From a virus: a DNA stretch of 64,000 bases. This document shows positions 4,480 to 56,120 of this stretch, in pieces. The notes beneath the pieces were generated by a model. It saw only the letters and a list, made by a program, of their open reading frames with translations. It did no database searches and was not told the DNA's origin. The stretch spans positions 33,746-97,745 of IMG/VR virus record IMGVR_UViG_3300045051_001056. The stretch is one strand, 5' to 3'. The position numbers and the translations under genes are program-made. Positions within the stretch are counted from its first letter, which is position 1. The number at the start of each line of letters is the position of its first letter.

Positions 4480-5114
4480 TATGGAAATTAAACTTTCAAT
4501 GGCAACATGGGTAATTATAGCGTTACTTACTTTAGTAATTATAGTAATCCAGCATCTTTTAAATTGGTGGTACCGTCATGAGATAAAATATGGAGCTTTT
4601 TATAATGATGCATGGCTATCAATTGCCGTAGGAATTTCAGTTTTTATCCTATATTGCATATTACTTTGTTGCATACTTTAAAAATAATCAAAATGCCAAA
4701 ATCAAAATTACGAAAAAATAGAAAAACCGTAATACAAACCATCATGTCTGCACCAGTAAGAATTCTTATCATGGTGAAAAAAGGGAAAAAAGAAATTCCA
4801 TTAATTAAAACTACTAAAAGTGGCGACAAAAAAAAGGTTTACAAAAACAACCCGGATTCGAAAGTTGTTAAGCAAATCAAACATTTTAGACCGCATGCCT
4901 AAAACATTATTTACTGTACACAAAATTGCCACAGCCCTGGAATTCCTAAGAAATATCGAACTGCAAGAAGGTGTTAATGACGGAGAAATAAATCAACAAA
5001 CTCAAAGTGACATAGAGACTTGCAAAGGAATCCTAGAAAATTCCATGAAAAACGAAGGATATGTAATTGTTTATGGCGAAACAGGTAATATGATGATTAA
5101 AAAAATAGTAGAAA

Positions 5115-19539: not shown

Positions 19540-19947
19540 ATGAACAAGAAAATCGCAGTTTACGGAAGTTTGAGAGAGGGAATGGGAAATTATGGACTAA
19601 TCGCCCATGCTATAAAATTATCAACAGAAGATGTTGAATTGCCATTTGCTATGGCTGATTTGGGGGGATTTCCGGGATTATACCCATCAGAAGAGAAACA
19701 TAAAATTAAAATTGAAGTTTTTGAAGTTGATGAAAATACTTTTAAAAATGTTGAACGCCTTGAAGGTTATCCTAATTTTTATGATAGGGCTAATATCGAT
19801 ACCAGTGTTGGTACCGCTGGTATATATTTTCTTCATAATACGCGGTATAGCAATGGCAGAATGGTTGAAAAATTTGATGGTGTATTTGACTGGACCAGGC
19901 ACTATAATAAAAAAGTTGAAAATACGAGAAAAGAATATTATAGATAA
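19540..19947 (+). CDS. gamma-glutamylcyclotransferase (GGCT/AIG2-like)
   Basis: VYGSLREGMGN, LGGFPGL, ERLEGYPNFYDR. Confidence 0.9.
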   Translation: MNKKIAVYGSLREGMGNYGLIAHAIKLSTEDVELPFAMADLGGFPGLYPSEEKHKIKIEVFEVDENTFKNVERLEGYPNFYDRANIDTSVGTAGIYFLHNTRYSNGRMVEKFDGVFDWTRHYNKKVENTRKEYYR

Positions 19948-19960
19948 GAAAGAGAGAAAA

Positions 19961-20206
19961 ATGAGAGTATCTATTAAATTTTTCGAAAAAGACCGAGGCG
20001 ATATAACCGGTGGAACATATGTGCAAAAAGCCATTAGAACGATATTTGTAAAAAATAATTCTTCCCTAGAGGAATATATCCTAGATCTTACAGATAGAAC
20101 TGGGGGAAAATATCGCAAGATGGCGGATAAGAATGAGTATCAATATGAGTCAGAATGGGGTACATTAAAAATAGAAACATTCAAACATTCAGGTGATGAA
20201 TTATAG
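19961..20206 (+). CDS. hypothetical protein
   Basis: MRVSIKFFEK start inferred; the longer ORF-track call overlaps GGCT. Confidence 0.5.
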   Translation: MRVSIKFFEKDRGDITGGTYVQKAIRTIFVKNNSSLEEYILDLTDRTGGKYRKMADKNEYQYESEWGTLKIETFKHSGDEL

Positions 20207-32601: not shown

Positions 32602-35600
32602 TTATTGTACATTCCTCAATAATGGCCTATCCATATTATATTGAATTTTGTGATAGACATTTAATATCGGAAATTGTTTATTGAATTTTTCCAGCAATTT
32701 CTCCTCGTCATAATAATCATCGCCTGCCAAATATCTTTCACTAGCATATATAAACCTAGAAAAATCCATATATATCGATAGTGTTGGTATTGGATTGTTT
32801 ATCATTTGTGCTAATGTTCCTGGGTTGCTATAAAAAGATATGTCACTCATAATCCTATTGAGCATATTCATAGATGCGTATAAAAATCCTTTATCATCAT
32901 CGTCTCCAGCCACAATTGATGCGAGAAGTAAGTATGCTCCATATAATGTTGCCATGTAATAGATTTCATGAAATGTTTTTCTTACATTAGCAATCACCAT
33001 CGCCTTATCGATTGCGCTCATTTTTCTATTTGAAAATGCGTCTTCACCTTGAAATGCCATGAGTTTGAACATTGTTGCAAATCCATCAAGTATTCCATTG
33101 TCTTTAAAGAATTTAAAAGTAGTAACATATCTTCCCTCTTCAGTTCTTTCAAGAATCTCGTCATATCTCTTAGAGTCAAATCTATTGGCTATTCCTTCCG
33201 CCATCCAGGATAGCCTATATTGAGCTAAGAGCCTACCAATTAAATGTCTTTTAATCTCTGGAGTAGTGTCGGCATCCATATTTCCATGCAATGCTCTATT
33301 AATCTTCTTGACCTTATTTGAAAATTTGTAGAATTCTTTATTCTCCATATCATTGCCAACATCTCCATTCCAGTCTTTATTTTCCCCAAATTCCGCAGTG
33401 TTCCACTCTCCATCATCATTAAAGGCTTCGTAAAGAGATCTTTCCTTTCCAGATGAGTCTTGTATCTTTATATGTCTCATCATGGCCAATAATGTTGCCA
33501 CACGGTTTATGTATTCAGAGCTAGACATGAATCCCATTGGACCGAATAAATTTAGGTCATAAGATTTATTCTTTAATACCGCTTCCGACACGTCTATTGT
33601 TACGCCAAATTTTTGGGCCATATTATAGGCCTTATTTTTATGTAAAGAACTTGGTCTTATAGATTTTAAAGATGAGTGCATTGCTTCTAATATAGAAGCT
33701 CTAGCTTCTGTGGGATTAAAGTCTAATCTGGCAGTTGCATGATTCAATATTGATATATTTCCAAATCCTAAGTTTCCAACACCTGGGAATATGTTATACC
33801 AAAAAGCTTTCATATAAGACATTTTAATGCCAATATCTGCAGCTTTTGCTATGTCAACATTTCTGCCCAGAACTTTCATTGCACTTTCATACATGGATGA
33901 CAGAGACTTATATTCAGACTCAGTTATTTTCTTATCGTCCAGATCCTGTTCAAGTTGATTCATCCTATCTTCTAAATCTTTGTAGGCATCCTTTTCTGTA
34001 ACTATAATTACTTGATTAGGGTACTTCTTTAATATTGCCTCCGATGCTTCTTCTATCCCAAGGGAGGTGGACATCTTATTGAAATCTTCAATTATTTTAA
34101 CTGTGTTTGGAGTGCTTCCAATCACCTTAATCATATTCTTCTTTTTATCAAAGAATTTTATCTTTGTGTGCGTCCAGGTTTCATCGTCATATTTGTTTCC
34201 ATAAATATTGGCATCAATAGTGTGCTGTAACATTTTAGATGCATTAATTAGTCCTCTATCAACTAATTTTGGTCCAAGACTATCTGTTATTGGAGTTCCA
34301 TCCGAATTTTTCAAAACAGCTTTGGCCTCTTTGATAAAATGATTTCCAAGAAGAACCATTCCCTCAGTGTTAGACATGTGCTTATAGGTTAATGCCATCT
34401 CAGTAAATTTATACATTATATCCTCGAGATTTTTGCTTCTGTCAGCCATATCTATGGACCTCATGTATTTTACGGGAATGCTCCTAACTGGATTTCCGAA
34501 TTCATCAACTTCTACCCTAATCTCCTCATCGCTAGCAGGCGTTGTTGCTGAATTTATTAAATTTTGACCCAATCCAGAAAAAAACCCTTTCAAACCTCTT
34601 CGCGATACTCGATTCCATACCGTGTCCCTAACTGCTGGGATGAAATTTGGGGCCAGACCTTTCTTTGAATACGAGGGAAGATATGATAACATTTCTTCCA
34701 TAAGATTTATGTACTCATAATAAAATTTCTTAGCTAACGGATTCTCAAGTATTGATTTTTTAAATTCTGAATTATAATATCTAGTTGAATCTCCATTAGA
34801 AAATTTTGATAGAGGGATTTGCGTTATGTAATTATCTATAAATTGGAATATCCTTATATCTCTTCCGATATCATCTTTTTTTATGTATTTAATATATGCA
34901 ATTGGACTATTATTCCTCTCGTATGCATCTATTTTGGCCACTAATGCTGTATCAGAATCTATCTCCCCAGAATCTTTTTGTCTCTGGAACTCTTCCTTTT
35001 TATAGGAAAAATTCTTTTTAAAGGTTTCATATTTTAAGATAGCATCGTTAATTCTATCTTCTGCATATTCTGGGTCTCCAGTAATGCTAATAATTTTTTT
35101 CTTAACCTTCTCCCTGCCTTCTTCTGTAAAAATTTCTTCTGGATTAATGGTATATGTTCTATTTCTTAGCCAAGTATTCTTTTCTACCACAGCCTCTTGC
35201 TGCCTGGCTATTCTTTTTGCAGCATCTTTAATGCGAACAGAATCATCTATATTCTTGTAAAACTTAGACTCCATTTCTGATTTATCTGTATGGAAATTTG
35301 ATGAGATTCTTCCTATTAGATTTCCTGTGTAATTTCCATCATCATCTTTTTCCCAAAAAATATCTGGGTTTATCTTGCCTCTGATATCGTCAAATAATCC
35401 CCTAACCCTTTTTCTGATTTTGTTTACCTCTAATTGCGTTCTAGAGTTGGCCCTCTTAATAAATCCATCCACTGCACTAAGGATTTTTATTCTAGTGTCA
35501 GCTATTGTCATTGTTTTCCTTCTTATGATGTCTATGTCCTCAGCCTTTTCCAGATCATCCTGTTTCATGTTCTTAACAAAAGATTGACTTTCTTTCAGAA

Positions 35601-36732
35601 ACATATCACCAGCTTTAGTTCTTAGTTTGATTACCAAATCATCGCTTGCCCCTTGCTCTATCTCATGCAATGCTTGCTGTATCTCATCATGTATTAATGT
35701 TCCCTGATTGAGCAGAGATTGTGATACATTTTTCCACATAGTCATAGAATCCATGGCCGTAACCATGTCATCGGCGCTGGCATCTTTGGCATTGGCTATT
35801 CTTAATGCGAATTTTTTGTGAGAATCAAATAGTCTCCTTAGATTGTCAATAGTAAAATTTCTTCCATCAGATGTAAACATATCGTTAACATCATTAAGTA
35901 GTGATTTTTGTTCGACAATCATGTCTTGTTTTTTTTCCCTAATCCTATCGATTCTTCGCACTAAATCTTCTATCCTTTCATCGTTAGGTTGAACTATTTT
36001 CCTCAATTCCTGCAATTCCCTTTTCAGCGTATCTTCATTTGTTTGAAGCTTCCCAATCAAAGAATTAATGGATTTGATTTTTATTTGTGCCTGCCTTAGT
36101 ATTAATGGAATACCGCTATGCAAGCCTTTAATATCCTTAGGATTGATATTTTGATATATCTCAATAAAGTCAACATCTTCGTCCAATATTGGGAGTTCCT
36201 GCATTTCATCTCTTGTGACGGGTATATCATTTATATGATTTGATACATCTTCTCCAAAGCCAATTTCAGTATTTTCAAATGCATTTGAAATGGATGCTTC
36301 ATCATACATACTCTGCTCACCTTCATTTGATATGGAGTATAAGTATGTTTCATCAAATTCACCATCTTCCATTGGAGGCTGATCGATTCCTGGGCTAGCA
36401 TATACTTCATCATTAACAGAATTTCCCCAATCAATATTGAATTTAGTGTTATACTTCTTGCCGGTGGTGAGATTTACCTTATCTGGAGTTGTCCATTTGC
36501 CCTTATCAAGCACTAGCACGCCATGGTTTGAATCATTTTCTAGGTTATAATTATTGATACTCTTCTGATAATCAATAATTTCTTTACTAGTCTTAATTCC
36601 ATCACTCACATTCAATTCTTCTAAAAGTGTAGCATTCTCCTTTAGGTACATGGTGATACCAGCATCAGTTCCATATCTCTTGATATATTTTTGAAGCTTT
36701 TCGTCCTGTATGTTTTCTATTCTACACGCCAT
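32602..36732 (-). CDS. giant virion/ejected protein (1376 aa)
   Basis: Adjacent to vRNAP; helical, with a C-terminal hydrophobic segment; HGNMD...GRLLAQYR.W...RF...EGRY pattern of crAss-like giant proteins. Confidence 0.75.
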   Translation of the reverse strand: MACRIENIQDEKLQKYIKRYGTDAGITMYLKENATLLEELNVSDGIKTSKEIIDYQKSINNYNLENDSNHGVLVLDKGKWTTPDKVNLTTGKKYNTKFNIDWGNSVNDEVYASPGIDQPPMEDGEFDETYLYSISNEGEQSMYDEASISNAFENTEIGFGEDVSNHINDIPVTRDEMQELPILDEDVDFIEIYQNINPKDIKGLHSGIPLILRQAQIKIKSINSLIGKLQTNEDTLKRELQELRKIVQPNDERIEDLVRRIDRIREKKQDMIVEQKSLLNDVNDMFTSDGRNFTIDNLRRLFDSHKKFALRIANAKDASADDMVTAMDSMTMWKNVSQSLLNQGTLIHDEIQQALHEIEQGASDDLVIKLRTKAGDMFLKESQSFVKNMKQDDLEKAEDIDIIRRKTMTIADTRIKILSAVDGFIKRANSRTQLEVNKIRKRVRGLFDDIRGKINPDIFWEKDDDGNYTGNLIGRISSNFHTDKSEMESKFYKNIDDSVRIKDAAKRIARQQEAVVEKNTWLRNRTYTINPEEIFTEEGREKVKKKIISITGDPEYAEDRINDAILKYETFKKNFSYKKEEFQRQKDSGEIDSDTALVAKIDAYERNNSPIAYIKYIKKDDIGRDIRIFQFIDNYITQIPLSKFSNGDSTRYYNSEFKKSILENPLAKKFYYEYINLMEEMLSYLPSYSKKGLAPNFIPAVRDTVWNRVSRRGLKGFFSGLGQNLINSATTPASDEEIRVEVDEFGNPVRSIPVKYMRSIDMADRSKNLEDIMYKFTEMALTYKHMSNTEGMVLLGNHFIKEAKAVLKNSDGTPITDSLGPKLVDRGLINASKMLQHTIDANIYGNKYDDETWTHTKIKFFDKKKNMIKVIGSTPNTVKIIEDFNKMSTSLGIEEASEAILKKYPNQVIIVTEKDAYKDLEDRMNQLEQDLDDKKITESEYKSLSSMYESAMKVLGRNVDIAKAADIGIKMSYMKAFWYNIFPGVGNLGFGNISILNHATARLDFNPTEARASILEAMHSSLKSIRPSSLHKNKAYNMAQKFGVTIDVSEAVLKNKSYDLNLFGPMGFMSSSEYINRVATLLAMMRHIKIQDSSGKERSLYEAFNDDGEWNTAEFGENKDWNGDVGNDMENKEFYKFSNKVKKINRALHGNMDADTTPEIKRHLIGRLLAQYRLSWMAEGIANRFDSKRYDEILERTEEGRYVTTFKFFKDNGILDGFATMFKLMAFQGEDAFSNRKMSAIDKAMVIANVRKTFHEIYYMATLYGAYLLLASIVAGDDDDKGFLYASMNMLNRIMSDISFYSNPGTLAQMINNPIPTLSIYMDFSRFIYASERYLAGDDYYDEEKLLEKFNKQFPILNVYHKIQYNMDRPLLRNVQ

Positions 36733-39700
36733 TATTCACATTTTGTTTTGAAAATTCCACGCTCAACAGCATCTCTGAATGCAAATCTAACATTTTTTTC
36801 TGAATTACGCAAATACTCCACCACGGTAGAGCCTAATTGAGCCATTGTGCCACCATTTGCTATTATATTTGCAGTATGTAATGTCCTTGGAACATCCGAT
36901 GTAATTATTACTGAGGCGTTAGATAGTTTCTTGCCAAGCTCCTTGGCCTTATTTATTCCATTTTGAGTGAGCCTAGTCTGTTCTGATCTAAAATTGCCAG
37001 AGACATTATCCTCAGTTTCACCATGGCGCACAATATTAATAATGCCATTTCTACTTTTGATTTGGAAGGTGTCGCCGGGGCTGCTTTCCATTTTGGTATA
37101 TCTTGTTCTGAAATTATTGTCAAGATTCTGCGGCCTGCCTAAGGTATTCCATAATCTCATCAATCCAAATGCACTATTATGAGTTATTATAACCGCATTA
37201 TCTGGGGCTGATTCGATTAATTTATTTAAAGCTGATAATACATTGGTACTAAAATTGGTAAAGGATTCCCCATTAGCTATTGGCATATCTGGGTTGTTTA
37301 TAATTATATCGTCCACCATTGCTACGGCCTCCTTAGACTGTTTCGTACCAACCAAATCCTTTAAATCCAATGTTCTAAAATTGGGCTCAACAAGTATTTG
37401 TGGCTTCTGAAATTCTATTCCAATAGATGCTTTGTCGGGATTGTCTCTCCTGAATTGTTCTAACGATCTAAAGTAAGATGCTTCATCGCCCTGAAAATCT
37501 TCTAACTTCGGTAATTCTGTCATTTTTTTGGGTATTTTCTTCGCTCTCGGCAGAGCAACGTTGCTTTCTTTCCACTTCATCTCAAATTCTAATTGTTCTG
37601 AATGCGACATAGGTTTGGTGGTGGTTTCCATAGGTTTTAAGACTTCAAATTCTATAGCCGCTGCACCATCTTTAAATCTTTTTATATTATCTATTCCCTC
37701 CTGCGTCCATCCTTCTTTATACCATGTGCTTAGATACTCGGGGGTTCCCTTAGGATAAATTGCAGTTATTTTTGTTTGAACTTTCTTAATAGTCCCATCG
37801 GCAGATATTCCAGACTGAGTGATAATATCCCCCACTCTAATGTTATACTTTTGCATTTCTCCAACACTTCTCGTGGTTCTGGTCCTCAATCCAGCCTCTA
37901 TCATATCAATAGAATGGGGATTTGGTCCCAATAGTTTTTTAGATTCTGAATTTGCCACCTGAATTGTTCCAAATGACAATTTGCCAGATACAAGATTTTG
38001 GGGAATACTAACTACTGGAACAGAAACATCTTTTCTTTGTGGAATTTCCTTAACCTTATCAACCAGCGTCATCATATTTATAAACGCAGCCTCGTAAACG
38101 CTGTTTTTAGACGATTTCTGACCATTTTCGTTTTTAAAGGTTATAGAGTTTAACTTTGTGAATAACTTCGCAAATGACTCTAAAAATGCCCTTAAAACGT
38201 TTTTACCCTTTGTTATGCCAATTTTCTTTGCAGTTTCGGGTGAAATTTGAACCTGCTTCATCTGTGTCTGAAATTTTGGTCTTGACATAAGATTTGCCAC
38301 AAATTCTTCTGGAGAATTAAAGCTGTACATAGTTAACTTTAATTCATTTCTACTATCCGTATCATCTGGATAGAAATGTTGTGCAATTGAATCTATGTGC
38401 TCATCGTGAGATATAGCTGTTAGAATATATGTCCAGTCAGCATTAAGGGTTTTCCCTGTTACTATACTTATTACCGGAACATTATCCATAGAGTTCGCCG
38501 CATCCCTATATAACGCATCAACCGTATCAGAGATTTTCTTAAATGTTTTATTACCATTCTTGCCAAGAGAATAAGCCTCCGCCATCATAGCGTGATTTAA
38601 TTCGTGGGCAATAGTTTCGTGTGCATACTCTATACCATATTTATCGATAACTTCTGACATCTGTTTCTTGTAGATGCATATCTGACGTTTTTCTAGTTCA
38701 TATACGGCAACCCTACCCTCTGGGTCATTTGGTTCATAAACCATTTTGACATTATTCATATAGTCGCCCATAGACTCAGCCAATGCACCACTCCAGGCAA
38801 CGTTCGTATTCTCAGAGTTTGAGAAGAAGCTTTTTAGGTCTTTCACATACGAATTGTGTGGAATGTCTGACATAAGTTGGTCTGACGAAAAGCCAGAGTC
38901 AACCGCCGTTTCTGAACCGAGTGGTCTAATATCCTTTAATAATTTGGGAGTAACCCTTTCGCCATAACTACCAGAGTAATCTGAGAACGAAGGTGTTCCC
39001 CTTCTATTGATAGAGGCGCTACCCCTAGTAGGGATTTCGTCATATCTAGCAAATCCGTCAACCAAGGCTTCAGGGTTAAATTTGTACAATTTTATGTCGC
39101 CACCAACATATGATGATATATAGTTTTTGTATGACGGTTCTCCAGAATCATCAATAGTTATTATTCTTCCCAGAAATTCTCTATCCACGTTGTCGAACGA
39201 TTTAGAAGATGTGTCCACATTTATTCTAACGTAAGACTCCTTAGACTCCTTATCCTTAAATAATTTTCTATTAATTTTTGATATAATAGAAGCCTCTTCC
39301 GGATTATTCTGAAAATATTTCTCAACAAACTCAGCACTTCTATCCACGGAGATATCATCACCTTTCAATAGCATTGACACTTGGTCATTTACGCCCATCT
39401 TATCGAGAATATCGGCGTCCATATACTTGAGAGAACTAGTCATTTTTTGAAGTCCACCCATTAAGTATTCGTATTTAACCATATCCTCTGCAAATTTTCT
39501 ATACTCTGGATTATCGCTGGTGGCTAATTCATAAAATCCTAATGTCAAATTTTCCGCAGCAGAACTATCAGATATCCTAGCCTCCATGGTTACGAATCTG
39601 AGTTGTTCATCAGATTGCAATGTCTGAATAAATAAGTTGTTTGATAAAGCTCTTTCTTTCTTAAGCCTAATGAGATCGTTGGCCAACTGATGGTTATCGA

Positions 39701-42700
39701 CTAAATTTTCAAATGTAACACCATCCAATAGGGGCATTTTAGAGAAAACGAATGATTTGAATTCATTGGCAATATTTCTTTGGGCGTTAAATGTTCTCTT
39801 TGATTTAAACATACTACCCTTAGTTCTTTCAATATCAGACGTAGCCTGAATCAACATTGGATTGTTGTAACCCATAAGTTTTCCAATCGCATTCTGAACC
39901 TTTAGGGCGATTGATATATTGTGACCCGATGCAGTGATTTTATCGTTGTCGTCAATCTTCCATAGATATTTACCATTCTTAAGCTCTATGAATGCACTAC
40001 CATTTCTGGACCATAATGTAGATAAATTAGCCAAATCGCCAGATTGCATACCCTTTGATGCACGATATATGGTTCCCGCATTTTGATGATAGTTTGTACC
40101 AAGTCCACGAGAGTCTATTGTTGCAACGTTGGTTGCATCGGAGAACGGCCACGCTTTATCGCTAAGTTCTATGAACATATTGATAAAGTCTATTTGCTTA
40201 CCAAGATATTCTTTAGAGTTTCTTTGATCCGGAGGAGTCAATTCTACTTCACGAAAATCGTTTGGGGAATATGCTTCACTTTTCAGTGAATCGACATACG
40301 CGTCCAACTCCGACTTATCTCCAGAATATCTATTTCGAAGTTCATTAATGATTTCCTTAGCAGCGGTTGCAATTCTGGTATCACCTTCTGCTCCTTTTTT
40401 GAATTTTGCAATCGTGCCATTCGATTCAACCAAGTGGTCAGTCAGCATCTTAATCCCTTCTTGTCGAAGAAATCTTGCATTTGTAGATAGACTAAGTCCA
40501 TTTCCGCTAGAATCAGATAATATTGACATTAATGCAGACACATTGAATGTTTGCACGTTTAAATTATTCTTAGCCAACACAGGCTTATTTGCATTATCCA
40601 CTGCCCCAGACTGTTGGGTTCTAATATTTTCTATCCCAGAACGTTCGTGTGGTTTACCGTTAATATCTATATAAGTATTCTTATTGTTGGGATTTAGTCT
40701 ACCAAGTTTCAATACCTTATCTTTATTATTCTTAAATTTTGCAAACACGTAATTTTTAACTTTTCCACTCTCTGGATCTTTTACCATTATTGCGATATTT
40801 TTATTCTCCATCTTAATGGCCGCAGAAATGATTTTGGAAAATATTGCAACGCCAGACTTTGAGCCGGATTGTAACATATAATCACTAATCTGGCGAACAT
40901 AATCGCCAAATTCCCCCTTTGGATTATTTGCTATAACAAGAGAGGCCTCTTCCAGTAAATCTGGTTTCTCTAATGGTGAAAGTGCTTTTTTTATGACATC
41001 TTTATCAGACAGAACACTCTCGAATATTTCGAAGTAAGAATCTTGCAAAGCCTTCTTAATCAGGGAATCGGGTGTTTCCATATCTTTGACTAGCAACTCT
41101 CCGTACTCCTGGTCTGAAAGCATTGTATTCATTAGGTCTGCTATATCGCTACTCTCGCCAGTATCGGTAGCTTTAGATAAAGACCTCGCAACCTTCTCAT
41201 CAATCTCTCTTGCTCTATCAATTTTTTTCAATAATCTTTCATCATTTTTTACCCTACTGAGCCACCAAGAATTTATTACATCATGATTAATAATTATATC
41301 ATTATTTTCATCAAATGATATGGCATTAGATGGGATTGATGATAATTTTCCATCTTTTGTAAGAAATGTATTTCTCCAATATGTGTACAATTTGTCAATA
41401 TCAAAGTCAGATCCCATCTGAGTAGTAATCTCTGGAGGAACTATTGCAACATCTCCATATGATTTTGGTAAAAATCCTACTATCCTACCAATAACTTGAG
41501 ACGAGTGTCCTTGGTTTGGAATGCGCATTCCAATAATTGTAAGTAATTTTTCAGCCTCTTTTTCATTTTCGCCAAATTTACTCAAGTCAATTAAATTAGT
41601 CTTATCGTCAACAAAATCTTTTATATTGGCAAGTTTATTCATTTCATTCCATGCCTTAAACGGAAGAAGTATATCCATATAAGATATCCCATCTTTTGTC
41701 GAAGACATATATTTTAGTCCAGTTTCTGCATTATACCACTTAGTCTTTATTAGGCCATTAATATTATTAATCTTATCTGCATCTAGTGTATCTATTCCCC
41801 GACCAAGATCTGGGAATTGAACGAATGATCCACCTGGCTGTTTGGGTTTAATAACCCTATTGGAATACATTGAGAATAATATATTTTCCAATTTAGATGC
41901 AACGGCGCTAAACAATAATGGGATCTTGGCCTTAGCAGCATTCTGGACATGTTTAACATTGTTTTCCATCACCCCTATCCTGGATGCCTCTGAGGACATT
42001 ACACTAACGGCCTTATCCTCGTTAAACAACCCATCATTATATCCCAATTCACTATCCACATCTCTTTCTTCTGCCTGGGATAATGCAATCCTAATAGAAT
42101 GCTTTCTCTCTAAGAGGTCATTACCATTAACTTTTTCACCTTTATATTTAAATTCTTTGTCGAGAAGTCCTTCTAATATCGAAGTATCTGCCTGTGTTAC
42201 AAGTCTAATCTTGTCATGAGATTCGTCATATGGCAAATCTTGTTGATACCCAAAACCGGCAAATTCCATATTGGTTCTACCCCTGGAAAATGATTTAACC
42301 AATTCATCTTTTGGTAAGAAATTTCCTTTATCATCATAGATCGTCATTATATTTTCTGCGCCAACCTTAGCCGCCGACACGTGTACGAGCCTATCAATTT
42401 TCTCATCCTCCATAACCTGACGAAGGTCATTGAGCGGACCATTCATGGTTTCTGTTATTTGTCGTATCAGGGGCATCTCCGCAGATTTTACATAAATCTT
42501 TTTAAAATATAGTACTCCATCAATATCAACAAATCTATGAGTAACTTGCCTGGGCTTTCCCGCACCTATGATTATCTTTCTCAAGTCGGATTCATCCAGG
42601 TCTCTCCCAGAATTATATTTACTTTTTAAGTGAGTATATTCATTCTCTAATAATTGCCCATACTTAAATAATAAGTCTAATTTGTGATCCAGGGAGACAA

Positions 42701-45700
42701 ATTCAAGAGCATCTGATCCAACGGTGGATAAGTCTTTTATATCGACATTTAATTCTTTTGCCAGAGATTTTTTGTATTCGTCTCCATTGGTTTTCATATC
42801 ATTCACAAAGACTGCACTATATGTATCTGGCAATCTCTTCCCGCTTTTTAGAACGACGCCTTTGGCAACAGAAATTCCCGGGGCATTATCTGACGCCAAT
42901 CTCTTCTGATATTCTGCCATGGCATCATCTATTGCGAAATCTAATGTCTGTTCGCCCCTATTTAAGTGTTTTGCAATAAATCCCTTTACCGACTTATTGA
43001 TTTCAGCCGGATCGCCAGATATTAGCATCATTGAATTGTGGACAGCCACTTGGCTATTGAGGTTTAGATCTAATAATAGATGTAATAATGCCTGCTTTTT
43101 ATTCTTAAAAACAAATTCTGTTCCCCCCCATTGATTTGGAGCGAAGTATCCCAATTTATTATTTAATGCGTATGATTGATTTACTGGTATATCCTTAATC
43201 AATTGACCATCGACTTCAACTAATCCATTTTTCTTAAGAAGTTCAATATCATCCTCAGCCTTTTTGATGAAATAATCCGCCAGTTTGTCCTTGAAAAAGT
43301 TCTCGTACTCTGGATTTTCGAGAGACATTAATTTAATAGCAGATACCTGCTTGCCATTAACATCTATTTTTTGGTTTGGAACTATATTGTTAGAGGCATC
43401 TCTTTTAAAAATCTTGTTCAGGAATTTGTATGAGTAAATAAATTGACCATTATCAACATAATGTGCAGAATATTCATTTCTTAGCCTCTCTCTCCCATTA
43501 GAATCTGTTGTAATTATGGCCAAAATTCTTCCAAGCTCTCCACGAACAATGCAAAACGCGTCATCAAGGGCGTCGCTTTTCATTAGGACATCTTTATTTA
43601 TGGAAGCCATATTACCTTTTTGTCCTGGAATAACTATGCCCTTCGGTAGGCTAGTCCTTGGCAACTCAAAAACACTTGTAAGATGCTTGTCGGCTTTAGT
43701 GGTATCCCACACAAACATGGTGTCTTTACCATTATTCTGAAAGTCTGAGATTAAGCTTAATACTGCCTCAGATTGAGCCATTAATTTTCTTGTAGAGGCC
43801 TTTTTCGTGCCATCCTTTCTTATGCCATCCTTATAGCCAATCCTCCAAGAATTTCTAAATGGAGTATTATCCCTTCCAAGGTTTTTATTTTTAAGCCAAG
43901 AAGCCTCTCCCGTAAAGATAGAGTTCCTCAAGGCCTCTATCAATGGGAATCTTTTAATTCCATTCTCCTCAACTTTATCGTTGATTAGGTCATGAAGCAT
44001 ATTGGTTTGATAGGTGTTGATGCCAAAATTATAGTGGGCATTCCCATCGACCCCAGTACTCATATTAGCAAAATATCCATTTTTATGTCCAGCCTCAATA
44101 TTGGCAAGAAACTTAAACGCCGACTGATCCAACTTCCTCAATATTACATCTGGAGAATCATTGTCCGCTATTCCGTTCTCACCTTTTCCACTAAGAGTTT
44201 GCTCTATAGCAGAAAATATCCCAATGGGATTTCCCGTTTCGCTATATCCAAATTGGGAATCTAGGGATTTCCCCGAAAAAGTATATCCCTTTCGCTTATT
44301 ATATGTCTTGGGGAGCCTTAGTTCATCATATGTTTTATTGCTCAATCTTATACCAAGGCTGGCGAAAGCCTCTTTAACAAATTCAACCAATTCGGCATCA
44401 AGTTTAGGCCCAATCAGAGAAATATTTTTTTTCCTATATTCCCTTGCATCACTTATACTTTTAGAAAAGCTGTCAAATATATTCTTGCGCTCCTTAGGAT
44501 TATTATATAAAACTCCAGATATCATGGATTTCCATTCATTAAAAACAACCCTATCGGCTCTCCTTCTCTCTGAATTATAAGTTGACAAAGTGCTATACTT
44601 AGTATTCCAAGAATTCATTATAAACATATTCCTATGCCTATTCATTGCAATGGCAAATTGAATTCTTAATTGGGCGTCACCCTCTTTTAAATTGTCAGAC
44701 AATTGTCTGAACATATTATTGGGAATAAATTTATCCAAGATTGATGCCTCATCCTCTATGGCCCGCAATATTCCATCAACACTCCTGTCTGCAGTCATAG
44801 ACGTAAGCGCCAAAACCTTCTGATAAGCTCTCTCGGTATCCATGTGTCTTGCTAGTCCCAATGCATTTTCGCTAGGATCTTTTAGTGACCACATCAATAT
44901 CTTCACGGAATCGCTCGAAGTGCTAGATTCACTCCTGCTGAACATGCCATCATTATTCCAATCCTCTCCGCTCAAATAATCTGTGTCGGACGTGTTGATC
45001 ATTTCATCGTCTTCACTTTCAGATTCTATTTCATCCTCAGACATTTCTCTCAATCTGTCCTCATTTGAGATAGAGTTAATTACATCTTCTGAAACATCTA
45101 TGCCCAATCCTCGCAACTCTTTTATGGTAGAATCAACGATCCTCTTCCATGCTGTTATGTCAAGAATCTTTCTTACGCTTAGCGCATTATTATATGCTAT
45201 ATCGCGTTCATCTTCTGAGATTGAATCGTCCTCAGACAGTTCGGCCTGCCTATTATAGTGCGATTTCAGAGAATTATATGCAACATTTAACATTCTACGC
45301 ACGCTGACATTATTGCCTTCTTTCCTAATCAAGGTAGAAAATGCATCCTTAATTACTCCAATGCCCGCATGTTTCTCCTCACTAGTTATAGCTTGATTAT
45401 CTGAAGTCTTTATAATGAAGTCTCTATCAATATTTTTTTCATCTGACGGAACCTTGATGGCGAAAATTGACGCTTCTGGCCGCGCACCCCCCTGAACCTC
45501 ATCAACAGATTTTGCAGAATGGTCTAATAAGCTTGAGGCCACACTTACAAAATCGTTATATGCGCTACTAGGTATTTTTAATATCTTGGACACCCAGTCA
45601 AGAAAGTCTTGGAATATATTTTTCTCACCAATTTGAGGAGATGAAATGCTAGATAATTCTTTTATAAATTTAGAATTAGTAAACCCCTCGCTAATAAATT

Positions 45701-46391
45701 CATTTAAATTTTTTAATCCATAATATTTACCTTTTGCCTCAGCTTCAGTGATATTATATTTCTCCTGTATATTAGACAACACATGATTATATATGTCCCT
45801 TAATTTCTCCACGTGGGTTGATTGTGGATTATTATTAATATATCTGGCAGATATAGAGTGAATTATTTCATGAATTATTGCATTATGGGATAACCCATTT
45901 GGGGATGTTTGACTATAGTCTCCAAATTCAGATATTCTAATGGAATGTAATCCTGAATTATATTCAGCCAATGTAATATTACCCATACTGTTTTCCAGAT
46001 AGTTAACCGGCTCTAGGTCGATCCTAATATTATAATCGCCAAGACTAATTACATTGCGTAATGCATTTATTATTGGACTTAACCCAGGATTTCTAATATT
46101 GATTCTATCCAAAACCTCTCCGACAGTGGAATCATTTCTGCCATCAAAAATATCCCTCCTAACAAACTGATCGGTAGGATTACCCAATCTCCTGGCTTCA
46201 TTAAATCTTGCTTCATGTATGGCGGATAGCTCTTCCGCAGACAACTTGCCTTGCCAATAGCCATTCATGGGTAGCCCAAGGTTATCTATATTACCCTCTG
46301 TTTTATTCCATATGGAATATGCGAGAGTTGTTCCAACTTTTTCTTCTAAAGATTTAAATGCTTGAGAGGATTTATTTGGACAATTTATCAT
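36732..46391 (-). CDS. virion RNA polymerase polyprotein (phi14:2 gp66-like) with accessory domains
   Basis: RIPNQGHSS and QMGSDFDIDKLY (about 41390-41420), AVDNANKP; two HExxH zincin-like motifs (HEIIH, HELNH); ASCH-like and His-phosphatase domains at the C-terminus. Confidence 0.92.
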   Translation of the reverse strand: MINCPNKSSQAFKSLEEKVGTTLAYSIWNKTEGNIDNLGLPMNGYWQGKLSAEELSAIHEARFNEARRLGNPTDQFVRRDIFDGRNDSTVGEVLDRINIRNPGLSPIINALRNVISLGDYNIRIDLEPVNYLENSMGNITLAEYNSGLHSIRISEFGDYSQTSPNGLSHNAIIHEIIHSISARYINNNPQSTHVEKLRDIYNHVLSNIQEKYNITEAEAKGKYYGLKNLNEFISEGFTNSKFIKELSSISSPQIGEKNIFQDFLDWVSKILKIPSSAYNDFVSVASSLLDHSAKSVDEVQGGARPEASIFAIKVPSDEKNIDRDFIIKTSDNQAITSEEKHAGIGVIKDAFSTLIRKEGNNVSVRRMLNVAYNSLKSHYNRQAELSEDDSISEDERDIAYNNALSVRKILDITAWKRIVDSTIKELRGLGIDVSEDVINSISNEDRLREMSEDEIESESEDDEMINTSDTDYLSGEDWNNDGMFSRSESSTSSDSVKILMWSLKDPSENALGLARHMDTERAYQKVLALTSMTADRSVDGILRAIEDEASILDKFIPNNMFRQLSDNLKEGDAQLRIQFAIAMNRHRNMFIMNSWNTKYSTLSTYNSERRRADRVVFNEWKSMISGVLYNNPKERKNIFDSFSKSISDAREYRKKNISLIGPKLDAELVEFVKEAFASLGIRLSNKTYDELRLPKTYNKRKGYTFSGKSLDSQFGYSETGNPIGIFSAIEQTLSGKGENGIADNDSPDVILRKLDQSAFKFLANIEAGHKNGYFANMSTGVDGNAHYNFGINTYQTNMLHDLINDKVEENGIKRFPLIEALRNSIFTGEASWLKNKNLGRDNTPFRNSWRIGYKDGIRKDGTKKASTRKLMAQSEAVLSLISDFQNNGKDTMFVWDTTKADKHLTSVFELPRTSLPKGIVIPGQKGNMASINKDVLMKSDALDDAFCIVRGELGRILAIITTDSNGRERLRNEYSAHYVDNGQFIYSYKFLNKIFKRDASNNIVPNQKIDVNGKQVSAIKLMSLENPEYENFFKDKLADYFIKKAEDDIELLKKNGLVEVDGQLIKDIPVNQSYALNNKLGYFAPNQWGGTEFVFKNKKQALLHLLLDLNLNSQVAVHNSMMLISGDPAEINKSVKGFIAKHLNRGEQTLDFAIDDAMAEYQKRLASDNAPGISVAKGVVLKSGKRLPDTYSAVFVNDMKTNGDEYKKSLAKELNVDIKDLSTVGSDALEFVSLDHKLDLLFKYGQLLENEYTHLKSKYNSGRDLDESDLRKIIIGAGKPRQVTHRFVDIDGVLYFKKIYVKSAEMPLIRQITETMNGPLNDLRQVMEDEKIDRLVHVSAAKVGAENIMTIYDDKGNFLPKDELVKSFSRGRTNMEFAGFGYQQDLPYDESHDKIRLVTQADTSILEGLLDKEFKYKGEKVNGNDLLERKHSIRIALSQAEERDVDSELGYNDGLFNEDKAVSVMSSEASRIGVMENNVKHVQNAAKAKIPLLFSAVASKLENILFSMYSNRVIKPKQPGGSFVQFPDLGRGIDTLDADKINNINGLIKTKWYNAETGLKYMSSTKDGISYMDILLPFKAWNEMNKLANIKDFVDDKTNLIDLSKFGENEKEAEKLLTIIGMRIPNQGHSSQVIGRIVGFLPKSYGDVAIVPPEITTQMGSDFDIDKLYTYWRNTFLTKDGKLSSIPSNAISFDENNDIIINHDVINSWWLSRVKNDERLLKKIDRAREIDEKVARSLSKATDTGESSDIADLMNTMLSDQEYGELLVKDMETPDSLIKKALQDSYFEIFESVLSDKDVIKKALSPLEKPDLLEEASLVIANNPKGEFGDYVRQISDYMLQSGSKSGVAIFSKIISAAIKMENKNIAIMVKDPESGKVKNYVFAKFKNNKDKVLKLGRLNPNNKNTYIDINGKPHERSGIENIRTQQSGAVDNANKPVLAKNNLNVQTFNVSALMSILSDSSGNGLSLSTNARFLRQEGIKMLTDHLVESNGTIAKFKKGAEGDTRIATAAKEIINELRNRYSGDKSELDAYVDSLKSEAYSPNDFREVELTPPDQRNSKEYLGKQIDFINMFIELSDKAWPFSDATNVATIDSRGLGTNYHQNAGTIYRASKGMQSGDLANLSTLWSRNGSAFIELKNGKYLWKIDDNDKITASGHNISIALKVQNAIGKLMGYNNPMLIQATSDIERTKGSMFKSKRTFNAQRNIANEFKSFVFSKMPLLDGVTFENLVDNHQLANDLIRLKKERALSNNLFIQTLQSDEQLRFVTMEARISDSSAAENLTLGFYELATSDNPEYRKFAEDMVKYEYLMGGLQKMTSSLKYMDADILDKMGVNDQVSMLLKGDDISVDRSAEFVEKYFQNNPEEASIISKINRKLFKDKESKESYVRINVDTSSKSFDNVDREFLGRIITIDDSGEPSYKNYISSYVGGDIKLYKFNPEALVDGFARYDEIPTRGSASINRRGTPSFSDYSGSYGERVTPKLLKDIRPLGSETAVDSGFSSDQLMSDIPHNSYVKDLKSFFSNSENTNVAWSGALAESMGDYMNNVKMVYEPNDPEGRVAVYELEKRQICIYKKQMSEVIDKYGIEYAHETIAHELNHAMMAEAYSLGKNGNKTFKKISDTVDALYRDAANSMDNVPVISIVTGKTLNADWTYILTAISHDEHIDSIAQHFYPDDTDSRNELKLTMYSFNSPEEFVANLMSRPKFQTQMKQVQISPETAKKIGITKGKNVLRAFLESFAKLFTKLNSITFKNENGQKSSKNSVYEAAFINMMTLVDKVKEIPQRKDVSVPVVSIPQNLVSGKLSFGTIQVANSESKKLLGPNPHSIDMIEAGLRTRTTRSVGEMQKYNIRVGDIITQSGISADGTIKKVQTKITAIYPKGTPEYLSTWYKEGWTQEGIDNIKRFKDGAAAIEFEVLKPMETTTKPMSHSEQLEFEMKWKESNVALPRAKKIPKKMTELPKLEDFQGDEASYFRSLEQFRRDNPDKASIGIEFQKPQILVEPNFRTLDLKDLVGTKQSKEAVAMVDDIIINNPDMPIANGESFTNFSTNVLSALNKLIESAPDNAVIITHNSAFGLMRLWNTLGRPQNLDNNFRTRYTKMESSPGDTFQIKSRNGIINIVRHGETEDNVSGNFRSEQTRLTQNGINKAKELGKKLSNASVIITSDVPRTLHTANIIANGGTMAQLGSTVVEYLRNSEKNVRFAFRDAVERGIFKTKCE

Positions 46392-46416
46392 ATAAGTCTT
46401 ATTTTAATTTGTAATA

Positions 46417-46424
46417 CAAAGATA
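46417..46424 (-). promoter_or_regulatory. -7 element TATCTTTG upstream of the vRNAP gene
   Basis: Exact TAnnTTTG in a 37-bp intergenic gap; no clear -33. Confidence 0.55.
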
Positions 46425-46428
46425 CAAA

Positions 46429-49400
46429 TTATTTACAATATTTTATTAATTTTTCTCCCATAGAAATACCGTCTTCTGGGTCTGAGTTGAACAAAGTGTT
46501 ATCGACCACCTCAATTCCTATTGATGCCTTCTGCGTCGATATATCATTAGATTCAAGCAACTCAATGGTTTCCCCATCAACCTTCATTGGCTTTAATTTT
46601 GGCCTAACCTTTTTCTCTGTAGCCCTAGGCGCAGTAGTCGTAGTAGATGTTGGCTTTTCAGGGGGCGTTACAGTCTTTGCGCCTTCTTTAGTGGCATCCC
46701 TCTTTAGGTCGAAGGTTATGGTTGGCTGAATGAGATATATATTCTTTCCACCAGATTGTCCAGCAACCTTGGCATTAGTTTGAAGTGTTTCCATATATAC
46801 GCTCGAATGATTCTTATTTTCGACCGTTCCGCTCTTGGTTATAAGATTTATTCCTTCATTAGACTCTAATTTTCCAGATTGAAAATTATGACGCATAATG
46901 CCAATTACATTAACCAGATCGTTTATTATTTTCTTTCCCTTATTAGAAGTCTCTTCGCTGTCGGACTTTAGCATAGTCGCAAGGGTTGATGTGGCTATAA
47001 CATTAGATGCACCATTAGTTTGACCATATTTAATCATGGTTTTACCATCTTTATCCCAAATGGTTATAGCCGGCCTATCTTTAAAGTTTTTATCACCCCA
47101 CAAATGGGAAGGTATCATATATACAAACTGTTGTAAGTAGTTCCTAAGACCATCCATCGTGTCTATCTCCTGGCCAATCATGGAAGAATCCTTATTCACC
47201 TTTTCTGTGATTTTGGGGTCTATATTTAAATGTGCTAATATTCCATTTTTAACATACTCAATCCTTCCAGAATCGTTTACGGTTTTTGACATCACTGGCA
47301 TAGCATAGAAGGAGCCATCCCCAATCGGCAATAATATAACAGGTCTGCCAGACGTTAAGTCTTCTCGTCCAATCATCTCTTGATTTACTACATTCGATAC
47401 AATGGTTTTACCTTGATACACAACCCCATTAACGACGTGTGCAAATGGAAGAATCCCATTAAATTTCGCATCTCCAATTAGATTTGGCATAGCATCCTTA
47501 ATGGATTTATATCCCTCAGTATTAATTAAAGGATGGCCAGCAGAAATATTCTCTATCTTTGACGATATTGAAACTTTATTTCCATTTCTAAATTCATCCG
47601 TAATGGTGCTCCTTAAAGCTGTAACCTCTTGGGCAATCGATTCCGATGAATTTGTTATATTCTTTCTTGCTCCTGGCCCACCTTCGTCCAGCCATTTGGA
47701 CTCCCTTAGAAATCCTATAAGGCTACCCTTTTCTCCATTTTTTTCGGCTAAATATATCGCAATTGGTATATCTCTCCCCTCCCTTATGGCACTTGCTGCA
47801 TTGTGCGGAGTAGTCTTTCTTTTCCCATTATGATATAGTGCCTTGCCATTTTTATCATAATCTGCTAAAGGAATTTTCTCTCCCTCGTATGGCTCAATTA
47901 TTATATTTCTACCAGCATATACATGACGTCTATCTGAATTAATTAGATATTCTTCATTAATGACTCCAGTTCCAATATATTGACCATCTATAAAATTATA
48001 TTGCTCCGCAAGAAATGCTATCGAATTTGGATTTGCATTTATCTCGCCCTTCGATGATTTTCTAATTATATCACCTATTTCTCCATCATTAATATCTGAT
48101 ACTGGTTCTGCTGGATCAGATATGATATTTTCAACAGGCTTTTTTTCCTTTTTCTCTACCTGCTTAGCAGCGTCATCAATCTTTCTATCTGCAGGAACAG
48201 ACTTTCTAGAATTAATAAATTCAAACAAATCATCCTTAGTCAAATCGTCTATAGTATATCCCTTTGAATTTAGGAATGCGTCTATATCTGCCCTATTAAA
48301 TTTCGAGTCTCCTATCTTAATTGACGCCCTTGGGTCATATCCAAGCTCTCCATATAAATTCTTTATAGTTGACAATATCGTAGGCTTTCCCTGATTATTC
48401 TTATCCATGAGATAAATCCTAGCACCCCTCATTGCTCCCATAACATCTTTCATCCTTGGCTTAACTACAAGATAATCCTTTTCCCCATTAGGCTTTACTT
48501 CGGAAATTATAGATATAGTATCCTTATCTGCATCGAACTGAGATAGCTCATCGTCTTTCAGATTCTTGGCAGTATTATCTTCATTTAATTCAAATTTCTC
48601 GGATGGACGCATTTTCACGCCCTTTGGACCATCTACGACGTAGCTATGCGGGATATCTTGATTCTCGGCTGGATTATTATTAATGGTAATCGAAGAACCT
48701 GGCCTAGTCTCTGTAGCTAAATCTTTTTCATTTATAATTCCTGGAGCTTTAGGGAGAATTTCTGATCTATTATTTTGCACAACCTCATCATTCTTCTGAT
48801 CCTCAGCCTTCTGAACTTTCTTCTCCTCTTTGATCTGGAGTTCTTTTTGAAATTCTGGGCTAGTGATTCTTTTCAGGGATTCGTCAGAAATCTTTTTATT
48901 ATCTCCTAAAACAATCTTCCTTGAATTTAATTCCGATGTAGCCTCATCCAACTCCTTCTCAGTTATTTCTGGATTCTGTTTTTTGAGAGAATCCTTTGCT
49001 GCATCTATCTGGCTATTTACAATATTAATTGCCTCTCCCAAATCATCTGATGCAAGCTTCTGATTTAGAACCTCCTCTTTGTTTAAATATCCCGAGAGAT
49101 TGACACTATCACCAGACTGCTTAATTCTATTAAGTCTGTCTATGGCAATTTTTGCTCTATCTACCTCATCCTGTACCTCACTTTCTGGCCTTCCAGTTTT
49201 CTTAGAGATATCTTGAACATTCTGATTTGCAGCAATTGAAAATGAATTGATGGTATTATCTATGTCTCCATTCAAATAATCTACTTTTCCCTGCTCATCA
49301 AGATAATCTCTATCAATCCTATCATGCTCCTCCTGTGATGATGCATTTTTCTTTGCTTGGAAATAATCATCGATCCTCTTCGACCTGTTGAAAGCTGCAG

Positions 49401-50679
49401 TTCCCTTATTGTTTGTGTTTCCCCCAGCGATGGTTTGCTTTAAATTATTAACAGCCTCTTGAGAACGCTCAATCGCCGTAGTAAGAACATGGGTTCCATA
49501 CGTTTGTATTCCACCACCTAGCGCACCCATAAACATTTGCTCCAATCCTTTTGGAGCCATTAAATTATTTAGTATCCTCTCTGGATCAAGTTGATACCTA
49601 AAACCATCTTTAGACTGTTGCATTGCCTCCGTTTGAGCAGCATAGTTAACGCCCTCCTCTAGGCCCTCTTGTAGCGTTTCGGATATAACTTCCTTGTTTA
49701 GCCCTCCCATATTCTTAATCAAAGCTTGATGGGCCTTCGTAAATAATCCAGCAGAAGTTAGGTTCGACAATATGTTTACTCTATTGATATTGACATCTAA
49801 CGCGGCAGCATCTGCTGCCAATTGCTTGGCGGTCTCAATGTCCTTTCCCTCCGCAACCTTGTTATTGAAAACATCTCGATACACCCCCATCCCCTCCTGA
49901 ATGGATTCTGCCTGATTTAGAGCTATTGCATTTGCAACAGTTGTTCCAGCTTGAACTCCTGAAATATGTTTCGAAATCATTCCCTCTAGGGCAATCTGGG
50001 CTTCCGCCTCTGGGACCTTTCCCTCGGCAATTAGCCTCTGGATTCTTGCCTCATATTTAGCAAGAGCTTTTGGCGATAAAGCACCGCTACTAATGTTGCT
50101 GGATAATCTATTTAATATGCCACCAGTGATCATACCAGTGAGCACAAAAGATCCAGCAGAATTTAATAGATTAGAAATATTTTCAGTCCAATATCCAGGA
50201 TCACCTATGTCCCACGATTTATTGGGCTCTTGTCTATATATGGGTTGATTCGCATTAATCTTATCCATCCAATCCTGCATAATATTTCCAACGGCATTCC
50301 CAACCTCATCATCTATATTGAAATAATCTTCTACATCCGCTATATTGGATAAATTTTGAACTGTTCCAAGTAAGACATTTGGAATAAGTCTCGTAGCGAT
50401 ATGACCGACCTGTTCTGATGTTGGCTGCGATATGGCACGCATCTTATTGATATCGACACCTAATTCGATTCCAGCAGGATTATATAAATAATCTTGATAT
50501 TTAGATATTTCATCTATGCCAGTAGCCGATTCTGGTCCAAACGTTATAGGTCTTTCTTCTAGCGGTTTTGTCCAATCCGGAACTGAAAGAGGCCCCTCTT
50601 GAGGAGGCCCCAGTATTTGACGATTTTCCTTTTGGGCTAATTTATTTTCTGAATAAAGTATTGATAGTGGATCTGGCAT
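46429..50679 (-). CDS. giant virion/ejected protein (1416 aa)
   Basis: QEGLEEGVN...FMGALGGG pattern of podovirus-type ejection proteins; position next to vRNAP. Confidence 0.75.
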   Translation of the reverse strand: MPDPLSILYSENKLAQKENRQILGPPQEGPLSVPDWTKPLEERPITFGPESATGIDEISKYQDYLYNPAGIELGVDINKMRAISQPTSEQVGHIATRLIPNVLLGTVQNLSNIADVEDYFNIDDEVGNAVGNIMQDWMDKINANQPIYRQEPNKSWDIGDPGYWTENISNLLNSAGSFVLTGMITGGILNRLSSNISSGALSPKALAKYEARIQRLIAEGKVPEAEAQIALEGMISKHISGVQAGTTVANAIALNQAESIQEGMGVYRDVFNNKVAEGKDIETAKQLAADAAALDVNINRVNILSNLTSAGLFTKAHQALIKNMGGLNKEVISETLQEGLEEGVNYAAQTEAMQQSKDGFRYQLDPERILNNLMAPKGLEQMFMGALGGGIQTYGTHVLTTAIERSQEAVNNLKQTIAGGNTNNKGTAAFNRSKRIDDYFQAKKNASSQEEHDRIDRDYLDEQGKVDYLNGDIDNTINSFSIAANQNVQDISKKTGRPESEVQDEVDRAKIAIDRLNRIKQSGDSVNLSGYLNKEEVLNQKLASDDLGEAINIVNSQIDAAKDSLKKQNPEITEKELDEATSELNSRKIVLGDNKKISDESLKRITSPEFQKELQIKEEKKVQKAEDQKNDEVVQNNRSEILPKAPGIINEKDLATETRPGSSITINNNPAENQDIPHSYVVDGPKGVKMRPSEKFELNEDNTAKNLKDDELSQFDADKDTISIISEVKPNGEKDYLVVKPRMKDVMGAMRGARIYLMDKNNQGKPTILSTIKNLYGELGYDPRASIKIGDSKFNRADIDAFLNSKGYTIDDLTKDDLFEFINSRKSVPADRKIDDAAKQVEKKEKKPVENIISDPAEPVSDINDGEIGDIIRKSSKGEINANPNSIAFLAEQYNFIDGQYIGTGVINEEYLINSDRRHVYAGRNIIIEPYEGEKIPLADYDKNGKALYHNGKRKTTPHNAASAIREGRDIPIAIYLAEKNGEKGSLIGFLRESKWLDEGGPGARKNITNSSESIAQEVTALRSTITDEFRNGNKVSISSKIENISAGHPLINTEGYKSIKDAMPNLIGDAKFNGILPFAHVVNGVVYQGKTIVSNVVNQEMIGREDLTSGRPVILLPIGDGSFYAMPVMSKTVNDSGRIEYVKNGILAHLNIDPKITEKVNKDSSMIGQEIDTMDGLRNYLQQFVYMIPSHLWGDKNFKDRPAITIWDKDGKTMIKYGQTNGASNVIATSTLATMLKSDSEETSNKGKKIINDLVNVIGIMRHNFQSGKLESNEGINLITKSGTVENKNHSSVYMETLQTNAKVAGQSGGKNIYLIQPTITFDLKRDATKEGAKTVTPPEKPTSTTTTAPRATEKKVRPKLKPMKVDGETIELLESNDISTQKASIGIEVVDNTLFNSDPEDGISMGEKLIKYCK

Positions 50680-56119: not shown

Positions 56120-56120
56120 A

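Follow-up and report, generated by a model that had tools for sequence, protein, structure and literature searches.

We found that three giant proteins encoded in a row on the minus strand of a 64,000-nucleotide stretch of viral DNA carry single cysteines at exactly those ends with which they would meet in a chain, and that relatives in which these proteins are fused lack the cysteines at the fused junction. The stretch, called the window here, is the right-hand 64 kb of the 97,745-bp virus record IMGVR_UViG_3300045051_001056, and the proteins A, B and C are the first, middle and last link of the putative chain. Judged from its sequence, B is a crAss-type virion RNA polymerase (vRNAP), and by analogy with cultured relatives, from which packing into the capsid and injection are known, the three proteins form a crAss-type RNA-polymerase cargo block. 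Under our favoured reading, to which we assign a probability of roughly 65%, the cysteines at the junctions link the three proteins head to tail; the bonds would most likely be disulfides that take the place of the peptide bond in the fused forms.

Terminal cysteines and the fusion of cargo proteins

Together, A, B and C contain only six cysteines in 6011 residues (0.10%), versus 247 in 21,432 residues (1.15%) in the other open reading frames (ORFs) of the 97,745-bp genome. Four of the six lie within four residues of a terminus, for which our own arithmetic from the counts gives a binomial probability of about 4e-9, while A has no cysteine at its N-terminus and C none at its C-terminus. A sequence-only reading of the window had already pointed out this distribution and proposed a linear chain from it; its cysteine positions match the translations exactly, and the four terminal codons were confirmed in the DNA. 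The same reading saw a resemblance between the N-termini of B and C, for which we obtained no support in the window (hhalign gave a probability of 7%, and the best local alignment had p=0.41 relative to shuffled sequences); only in some other lineages are the two heads significantly similar. A low-confidence AlphaFold2 model of C (residues 1-600, eight-row alignment) with a predicted local distance difference test score of 45 and a predicted template modelling score of 0.22 has coil at residues 1-10, followed by helices at 11-20 and 22-32.

The C-terminal cysteine of A occupies an invariant alignment column among eight homologues of 20-38% identity, seven of which have no other cysteine; in seven homologues of A it lies 1-3 residues from the C-terminal end. 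Seven unfused B proteins from the clade of the window, 29-44% identical, all retain Cys4 and Cys3218. The internal cysteines are unique to the phage of the window: in each of the seven, Cys947 is replaced by G, Q, A or S and Cys2572 by T, S or I. The terminal cysteines stay invariant where the flanking sequence varies, and they are embedded in conserved modules: in B a head of 41 residues and a tail of 35, in A a tail of 20. In the survey of B-family proteins described below, N-terminal cysteines are confined to residues 3-7, and 80 of the 82 proteins with a cysteine in their last 30 residues have it 0-5 residues from the end.

The pattern recurs in every genome in which all partners could be read. 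These are 15 genomes: the virus of the window, crAss001, phi14:2, the Flavobacterium phage FpV4, the p-crAssphage-like LMMB, and ten from IMG/VR (L003, G001-G006 and G008-G010). Each split junction in them (12 between A and B, 11 between B and C) has a cysteine on both facing ends, and no outer end has one, so that the terminal cysteines are conserved and reciprocally paired across orthologous sets of Crassvirales in 15 of 15 genomes. In crAss001, gp47 has its sole cysteine at residue 2339 of 2341, gp50 has Cys 5, 1334 and 2404 of 2412, and gp49 has only Cys 5; in phi14:2, the sole cysteine of gp078 is its last residue, gp077 has Cys 3 and 2179 of 2180, and gp076 has only Cys 3. Partly fused sets conform as well: the A+B fusion of FpV4 (4287 amino acids) has its sole cysteine 1 residue from the end and faces a C protein with Cys 3 and one internal cysteine, and in LMMB, an A protein with a cysteine 1 residue from its end is accompanied by a B+C fusion (4070 amino acids) with Cys 3 and none at the C-terminal end.

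These comparisons (invariance, the 15 genomes, the loss upon fusion and the phage A4 described below) strongly support the pairing of terminal cysteines along A-B-C that the sequence-only reading had put forward, but not its statement that the chain follows gene order. The A gene lies on the opposite strand in crAss001 and is not adjacent in G008; the rule thus tracks protein identity, A then B then C, rather than the arrangement of the genes.

Fusion of these genes in certain phages is known (10.1101/2020.03.07.982082). If the cysteines pair across the junctions, a fused junction is expected to have neither of them, and an initial inspection of 22 B relatives bore this out. The subsequent survey drew on 150 B-core representatives from a library clustered at 50% identity, with A and C domains located by iterated profiles, and scored 161 proteins, each starting with methionine and at least 1800 residues long; cysteines within the first ten residues were counted as N-terminal and those within the last ten as C-terminal. 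An N-terminal cysteine was present in none of the 70 proteins with an A domain at the N-terminal end versus 73 of the 91 without one (Fisher p=6e-29), and a C-terminal cysteine in 0 of 71 with a C domain at the C-terminal end versus 80 of 90 without (Fisher p=3.5e-35). Thirteen of the 18 A+B+C triple fusions are entirely free of cysteine over about 5000 residues, and exactly one cysteine is found in 35 of the 53 B+C fusions and 25 of the 52 A+B fusions. Across the 161 relatives, internal cysteines account for 0.024% of 641,493 residues.

A FastTree phylogeny of the B core shows 27 changes of fusion state for A and 17 for C. Among independent pairs that differ in fusion state (18 for A and 13 for C), the cysteine behaved in the opposite way in about 10 and about 11, respectively, and in the same way in none (sign test p of about 0.002 for A and 0.001 for C). 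As these tests hold, neither relatedness nor one inherited event accounts for the pattern. The possibility that the terminal cysteines merely reflect chance, or an artefact of start codons or ORF calling in cysteine-poor proteins, is negligible in our estimation. It might draw on the remaining, cysteine-rich ORFs of the genome, where terminal cysteines occur at about the chance rate (18 of 99 ORFs versus about 13% expected from ordinary cysteine content), but it is refuted by the invariant columns of A and B, the fusion survey and the independent pairs; the binomial probability in the window alone and the M-x(1-5)-C start shared by numerous genes that were called independently speak against it too.

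The nearest relatives of B, P0033 and P0034 (47-50% core identity), are both A+B fusions. In these fusions, 37-59 residues are missing from the C-terminal end of A and 72-300 from the N-terminal end of B, and with them the cysteine-bearing tail and head. A further protein, P0009 (2197 amino acids, from an 88-kb NCBI contig), joins the A N-terminal domain to the C C-terminal domain with no B core and no cysteine.

Related systems and competing explanations

The closest precedent is the cyanopodophage A4 (Anabaena phage A-4L), in which cryo-electron microscopy revealed that gp27 docks in gp26 by its C-terminal helix and that Cys1715 and Cys5 form a disulfide (PMC12002296, PNAS 2025). We checked the A4 genome record: gp27 (1717 amino acids) has Cys1715 as its sole cysteine, and gp26 (1114 amino acids) has only Cys5. 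As in the window, these are adjacent giant ejection proteins, the upstream one with a cysteine near its C-terminus, the downstream one with a cysteine near residue 5, and both otherwise free or nearly free of cysteine. Both junctions of the window fit this signature. Where the window has two such junctions, A4 has one, and its chain includes no RNA polymerase; the authors of the A4 study describe the bond as stabilising a ring in the pentameric core, not a thread, and report no link to gene fusion or fission. BLASTP of A, B and C against A4 gp26 and gp27 gave no match below E=0.1, and profiles of A and C against PDB chains gave none at E<=1. By analogy, the proteins of the window may work like the A4 pair, a likeness of signature and not of sequence.

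Homologues with the same cysteine rule are the crAss001 proteins gp47-gp50-gp49 and the phi14:2 proteins gp078-gp077-gp076, which share the A N-terminal domain, the B core with its DFDxD motif and the C C-terminal domain; they are only about 20-30% identical to those of the window, and crAss001 has the displaced A gene mentioned above. The phi14:2 proteins are listed as gp67, gp66 and gp65 in the RNA polymerase paper (10.1101/2020.03.07.982082), and according to the record notes all three were found in the virion by mass spectrometry. A second point of comparison are the N4-like phages, whose injected proteins (the vRNAP gp50/gp71, gp51/72 and gp52/73) contain 0.00075% cysteine versus 0.865% in the proteome (PMC11445570). 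Giant polymerase and co-ejected proteins are thus cysteine-poor there as in the window (0.10% versus 1.15%), and the single-chain vRNAP of N4 resembles the cysteine-free triple fusions of crAss-like phages. N4-like phages differ in having no terminal cysteines at all and a polymerase of another type that is always a single chain.

Cysteines are needed only where chains meet, on both sides, and a single chain does without them. This is most simply explained if they connect the chains, and a disulfide is the likely chemistry because there is one cysteine per side and no conserved metal ligand nearby. Covariation with fusion and fission shows pairing rather than chemistry, and the termini could also be linked across the junctions by a bridging metal, by other thiol chemistry of the thioester or ligation type, or by non-covalent docking with the cysteines fine-tuning the fit. 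Such a link, which would suit head and tail modules able to dock alone and an assembly that occurs in the reducing cytoplasm, appears unlikely to us: with one cysteine per side, a usual metal site would be short of ligands, no conserved histidine or cysteine stands near the junction cysteines in the alignments, and the A4 structure with the same signature contains a plain disulfide. Mass spectrometry of crAss001 virions furthermore lists gp47, gp49 and gp50 separately, although an analysis of this kind has no power to detect permanent ligation (PMC10172136).

Each terminal cysteine might instead act alone, tethering its protein to the portal, the inner capsid wall or other cargo, or forming a homodimer, with fusion simply removing the end in question. 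The lone terminal cysteines of two further cargo-like proteins (see below) fit this idea, as do the many inter-subunit disulfides of crAss001 tail proteins. It leaves unexplained, however, why the N-terminal end of A and the C-terminal end of C never carry a cysteine in the 15 genomes, why triple fusions need none, and why there is exactly one cysteine per side at split junctions; a homodimer would moreover let the two-cysteine B polymerise. We consider independent action of the cysteines quite improbable, and a head-to-tail disulfide remains the reading that we prefer.

Several observations weigh against that preference. In the survey, about 10-20% of single proteins break the rule. Most of these look like ORFs truncated at the N-terminal end or proteins with long N-terminal extensions in which the A profile failed, and about seven single-protein exceptions are still unexplained. 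An A gene split into two ORFs 3 nucleotides apart (L022:9848-18787) has no cysteine at the break, the first part (1890 amino acids) being cysteine-free and the second (1087 amino acids) having its sole cysteine 1 residue from the end; the split could be a sequencing error, a read-through site or a true exception. In LMMB, a cargo-like protein of 861 amino acids upstream of A (L070:2555-5140) has its sole cysteine 1 residue from the end, and in FpV4 a 598-amino-acid protein, likewise upstream of A (L069:2126-3922), has only Cys 5. No partner is evident for either, their counterparts in the window have no cysteine, and terminal cysteines may therefore have other partners too. The lumen inhabited by gut phages is also anoxic, which makes it uncertain that disulfides form there. 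Finally, fused forms were proposed to be cleaved into parts (10.1101/2020.03.07.982082), in which case the phages concerned would not require a chain that lasts.

In one apparent exception, L008, a gene for a LAGLIDADG homing endonuclease interrupts B within the catalytic motif; the break bears no cysteine, and the true protein ends have their regular ones. In genome G006 (L065:9743-10516, minus strand), a LAGLIDADG homing endonuclease gene lies in B exactly at the catalytic motif; the upstream ORF ends in ..QMGSDNP without a cysteine, and the insertion is probably of the intron type. P0124 ends at this same motif (..QMGSDFD).

The cargo locus and its neighbours

Past a strand switch near 32 kb, five large genes follow one another on the minus strand, among them the ORFs of A, B and C, which were recovered where the sequence-only reading had placed them (Table 1). 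GC skew and AT skew flip sign at about position 32000 of the window, at the boundary between plus-strand genes and the cargo and structural block on the minus strand.

Table 1. Genes, conserved modules and motifs of the cargo block (window positions)
Feature	Position	Strand	Particulars	Source
Protein A, 1416 amino acids, first link	46429..50679	-	sole Cys at residue 1415 (..KYCK)	
Protein B, vRNAP, 3219 amino acids, middle link	36732..46391	-	Cys 4, 947, 2572, 3218 (MINC.., ..KTKCE)	
Protein C, 1376 amino acids, last link	32602..36732	-	sole Cys at residue 3 (MAC..)	
Codon of Cys1415 in A	46435..46437	-	TGT	DNA read directly
Codon of Cys4 in B	46380..46382	-	TGT	DNA read directly
Codon of Cys3218 in B	36738..36740	-	TGT	DNA read directly
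Codon of Cys3 in C	36724..36726	-	TGT	DNA read directly
Conserved C-terminal tail of A	46432..46491	-	last ~20 residues, D-P-x-x-T-D-S-x-G-E-x-L-x-K-Y-C-K type	alignment
Conserved N-terminal head of B	46269..46391	-	41 residues; invariant M1 C4 L15 A24 I27 W28 G33 G39 P41	alignment
Conserved C-terminal tail of B	36735..36839	-	~35 residues, ..RFAFRxALxxGIFKTKC	alignment
DFDID catalytic motif of crAss-type RNA polymerase	41394..41408	-	B residues 1662-1666, invariant	alignment
HExxH	38592..38606	-	B residues 2596-2600, invariant, within a weak SprT-like zincin match	alignment and domain match
Histidine phosphatase (His_Phos_1) match	36852..37034	-	B residues 3120-3180, near the C-terminus	domain match
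566-amino-acid protein directly upstream of A	50681..52381	-	no Cys	translation
1239-amino-acid protein (ATG start)	52430..56149	-	no Cys; SLT lytic transglycosylase domain at 864-952	translation and domain match

Membership in the Crassvirales cargo block is indicated by the DFDxD motif, as defined in the RNA polymerase preprint (10.1101/2020.03.07.982082), and by the homology of the flanking giant proteins to phi14:2 gp078 and gp076 and to crAss001 gp47 and gp49. The 142 phage records matched by the B core come almost exclusively from crAss-like phages and Flavobacterium or Cellulophaga relatives. Protein A matched no Pfam and no PHROG family; its N-terminal domain (about residues 60-420) is common to crAss-like 'RNAP-associated' proteins and adjoins or is fused to B in many crAss-like contigs, including 29 IMG/VR crAss-like loci where it lies next to B. 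The C-terminal part of C (about residues 870-1370) is homologous to crAss001 gp49 and phi14:2 gp076, with residues 870-1284 matching crAss001 gp49 and its relatives at E of about 1e-9. A near-identity DNA search of phages gave no match to the window, nor did a single-protein scan of IMG/VR with B; a word-based homologue search with C returned only C itself, and an IMG/VR scan with the C alignment found crAss001-like contigs only. On these sequence comparisons, the phage of the window has distant relatives only in the collections searched.

The stop codon of B and the start codon of C overlap as TAATG, which leaves no spacer at this junction. A and B are separated by 37 nucleotides, which argues against translational coupling there, and a translational fusion was rejected as a candidate. 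A membrane-insertion role for A was likewise dismissed: no hydrophobic segment reaching a Kyte-Doolittle value of 1.6 over 19 residues was present in A, B, C or the two cargo proteins upstream. Intein trans-splicing was set aside too, as nothing of the size of an intein was noticed at the protein ends, in the course of an analysis that included no search aimed at inteins.

The 566-amino-acid protein directly upstream of A is likely a further piece of ejected cargo outside the cysteine chain, and the 1239-amino-acid protein is, from its SLT domain, probably an ejected cell-wall cutter. For the latter, the ORF finder lists an alternative GTG start at 56203, which adds a cysteine at residue 8. 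Single cysteines near an end also occur in ORFs of 96 amino acids (residue 5; window 4612-4902, plus strand) and 191 amino acids (residue 4; window 19631-20206, plus strand), as well as in a 103-amino-acid ORF outside the window whose last residue is its only cysteine (genome 27860-28171, minus strand); all three are probably due to chance, given a proteome with 1.15% cysteine.

Packing and injection of the polymerase cargo

We infer a course of events that extends from the bond itself and the timing of its formation to ejection as one thread and release by reduction. B would be the partner of both other proteins, its head pairing with the A tail and its tail with the C head. Each pair would dock first, and an intermolecular disulfide would then lock it once the particle leaves the reducing cytoplasm, yielding a nearly linear chain A-B-C. 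Like the single polypeptide of the fused forms, such a chain could ensure that A, B and C are packaged, and threaded through the tail, as one unit with a set order and equal copy numbers; reduction in the cytoplasm of the new host would separate them again. Passage through the tail channel requires partial unfolding (PMC10172136; PMC13434306), and cysteines so close to the termini would leave only a few residues of overhang in the linked chain, which would suit this passage. Inter-subunit disulfides occur in crAss001 virions in the tail and in gp57, and gp47, gp49 and gp50 were detected in the same virions by mass spectrometry (PMC10172136).

A more far-reaching version of this proposal, which we put forward tentatively and hold to have somewhat less than an even chance, is that the peptide bond and the terminal cysteine pair are interchangeable and have been switched many times, that the disulfide-stitched proteins A, vRNAP and C thread into the cell as one string, and that reduction in the cytoplasm is the switch that frees, and perhaps activates, the polymerase.

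Cysteine avoidance in the injected proteins of N4-like phages and one head-to-tail disulfide in A4 are already known. A chain of terminal cysteines in Crassvirales is not described in the literature that we searched. The structural atlas of crAss001 does not contain the word 'cysteine', and the disulfides that it lists are confined to tail proteins and gp57 (PMC10172136); the preprint on the phi14:2 RNA polymerase does not mention cysteine or disulfides (10.1101/2020.03.07.982082). The sequence-only reading, which had been aware of no description of such a linkage, was thus right for Crassvirales within this literature but not for phages generally, in view of A4. The link between terminal cysteines and fusion state appears to be undescribed. 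A 2023 review and a 2026 paper on N4 (PMC13434306) treat the arrangement and ejection of the three crAss proteins as unsettled.

No phages are more abundant in the human gut than crassviruses. The order-wide cysteine rule offers a direct handle on how their RNA-polymerase cargo of about 700 kDa is packed and injected, as it singles out four residues and two peptide pairs and predicts a 1:1:1 chain in fixed order. In annotation, the rule helps to decide whether an apparent protein end is genuine or is due to an intron or a sequencing error that interrupts the gene. The A4 disulfide is probably one instance of a wider design, in which injected proteins are free of cysteine except where two chains join.

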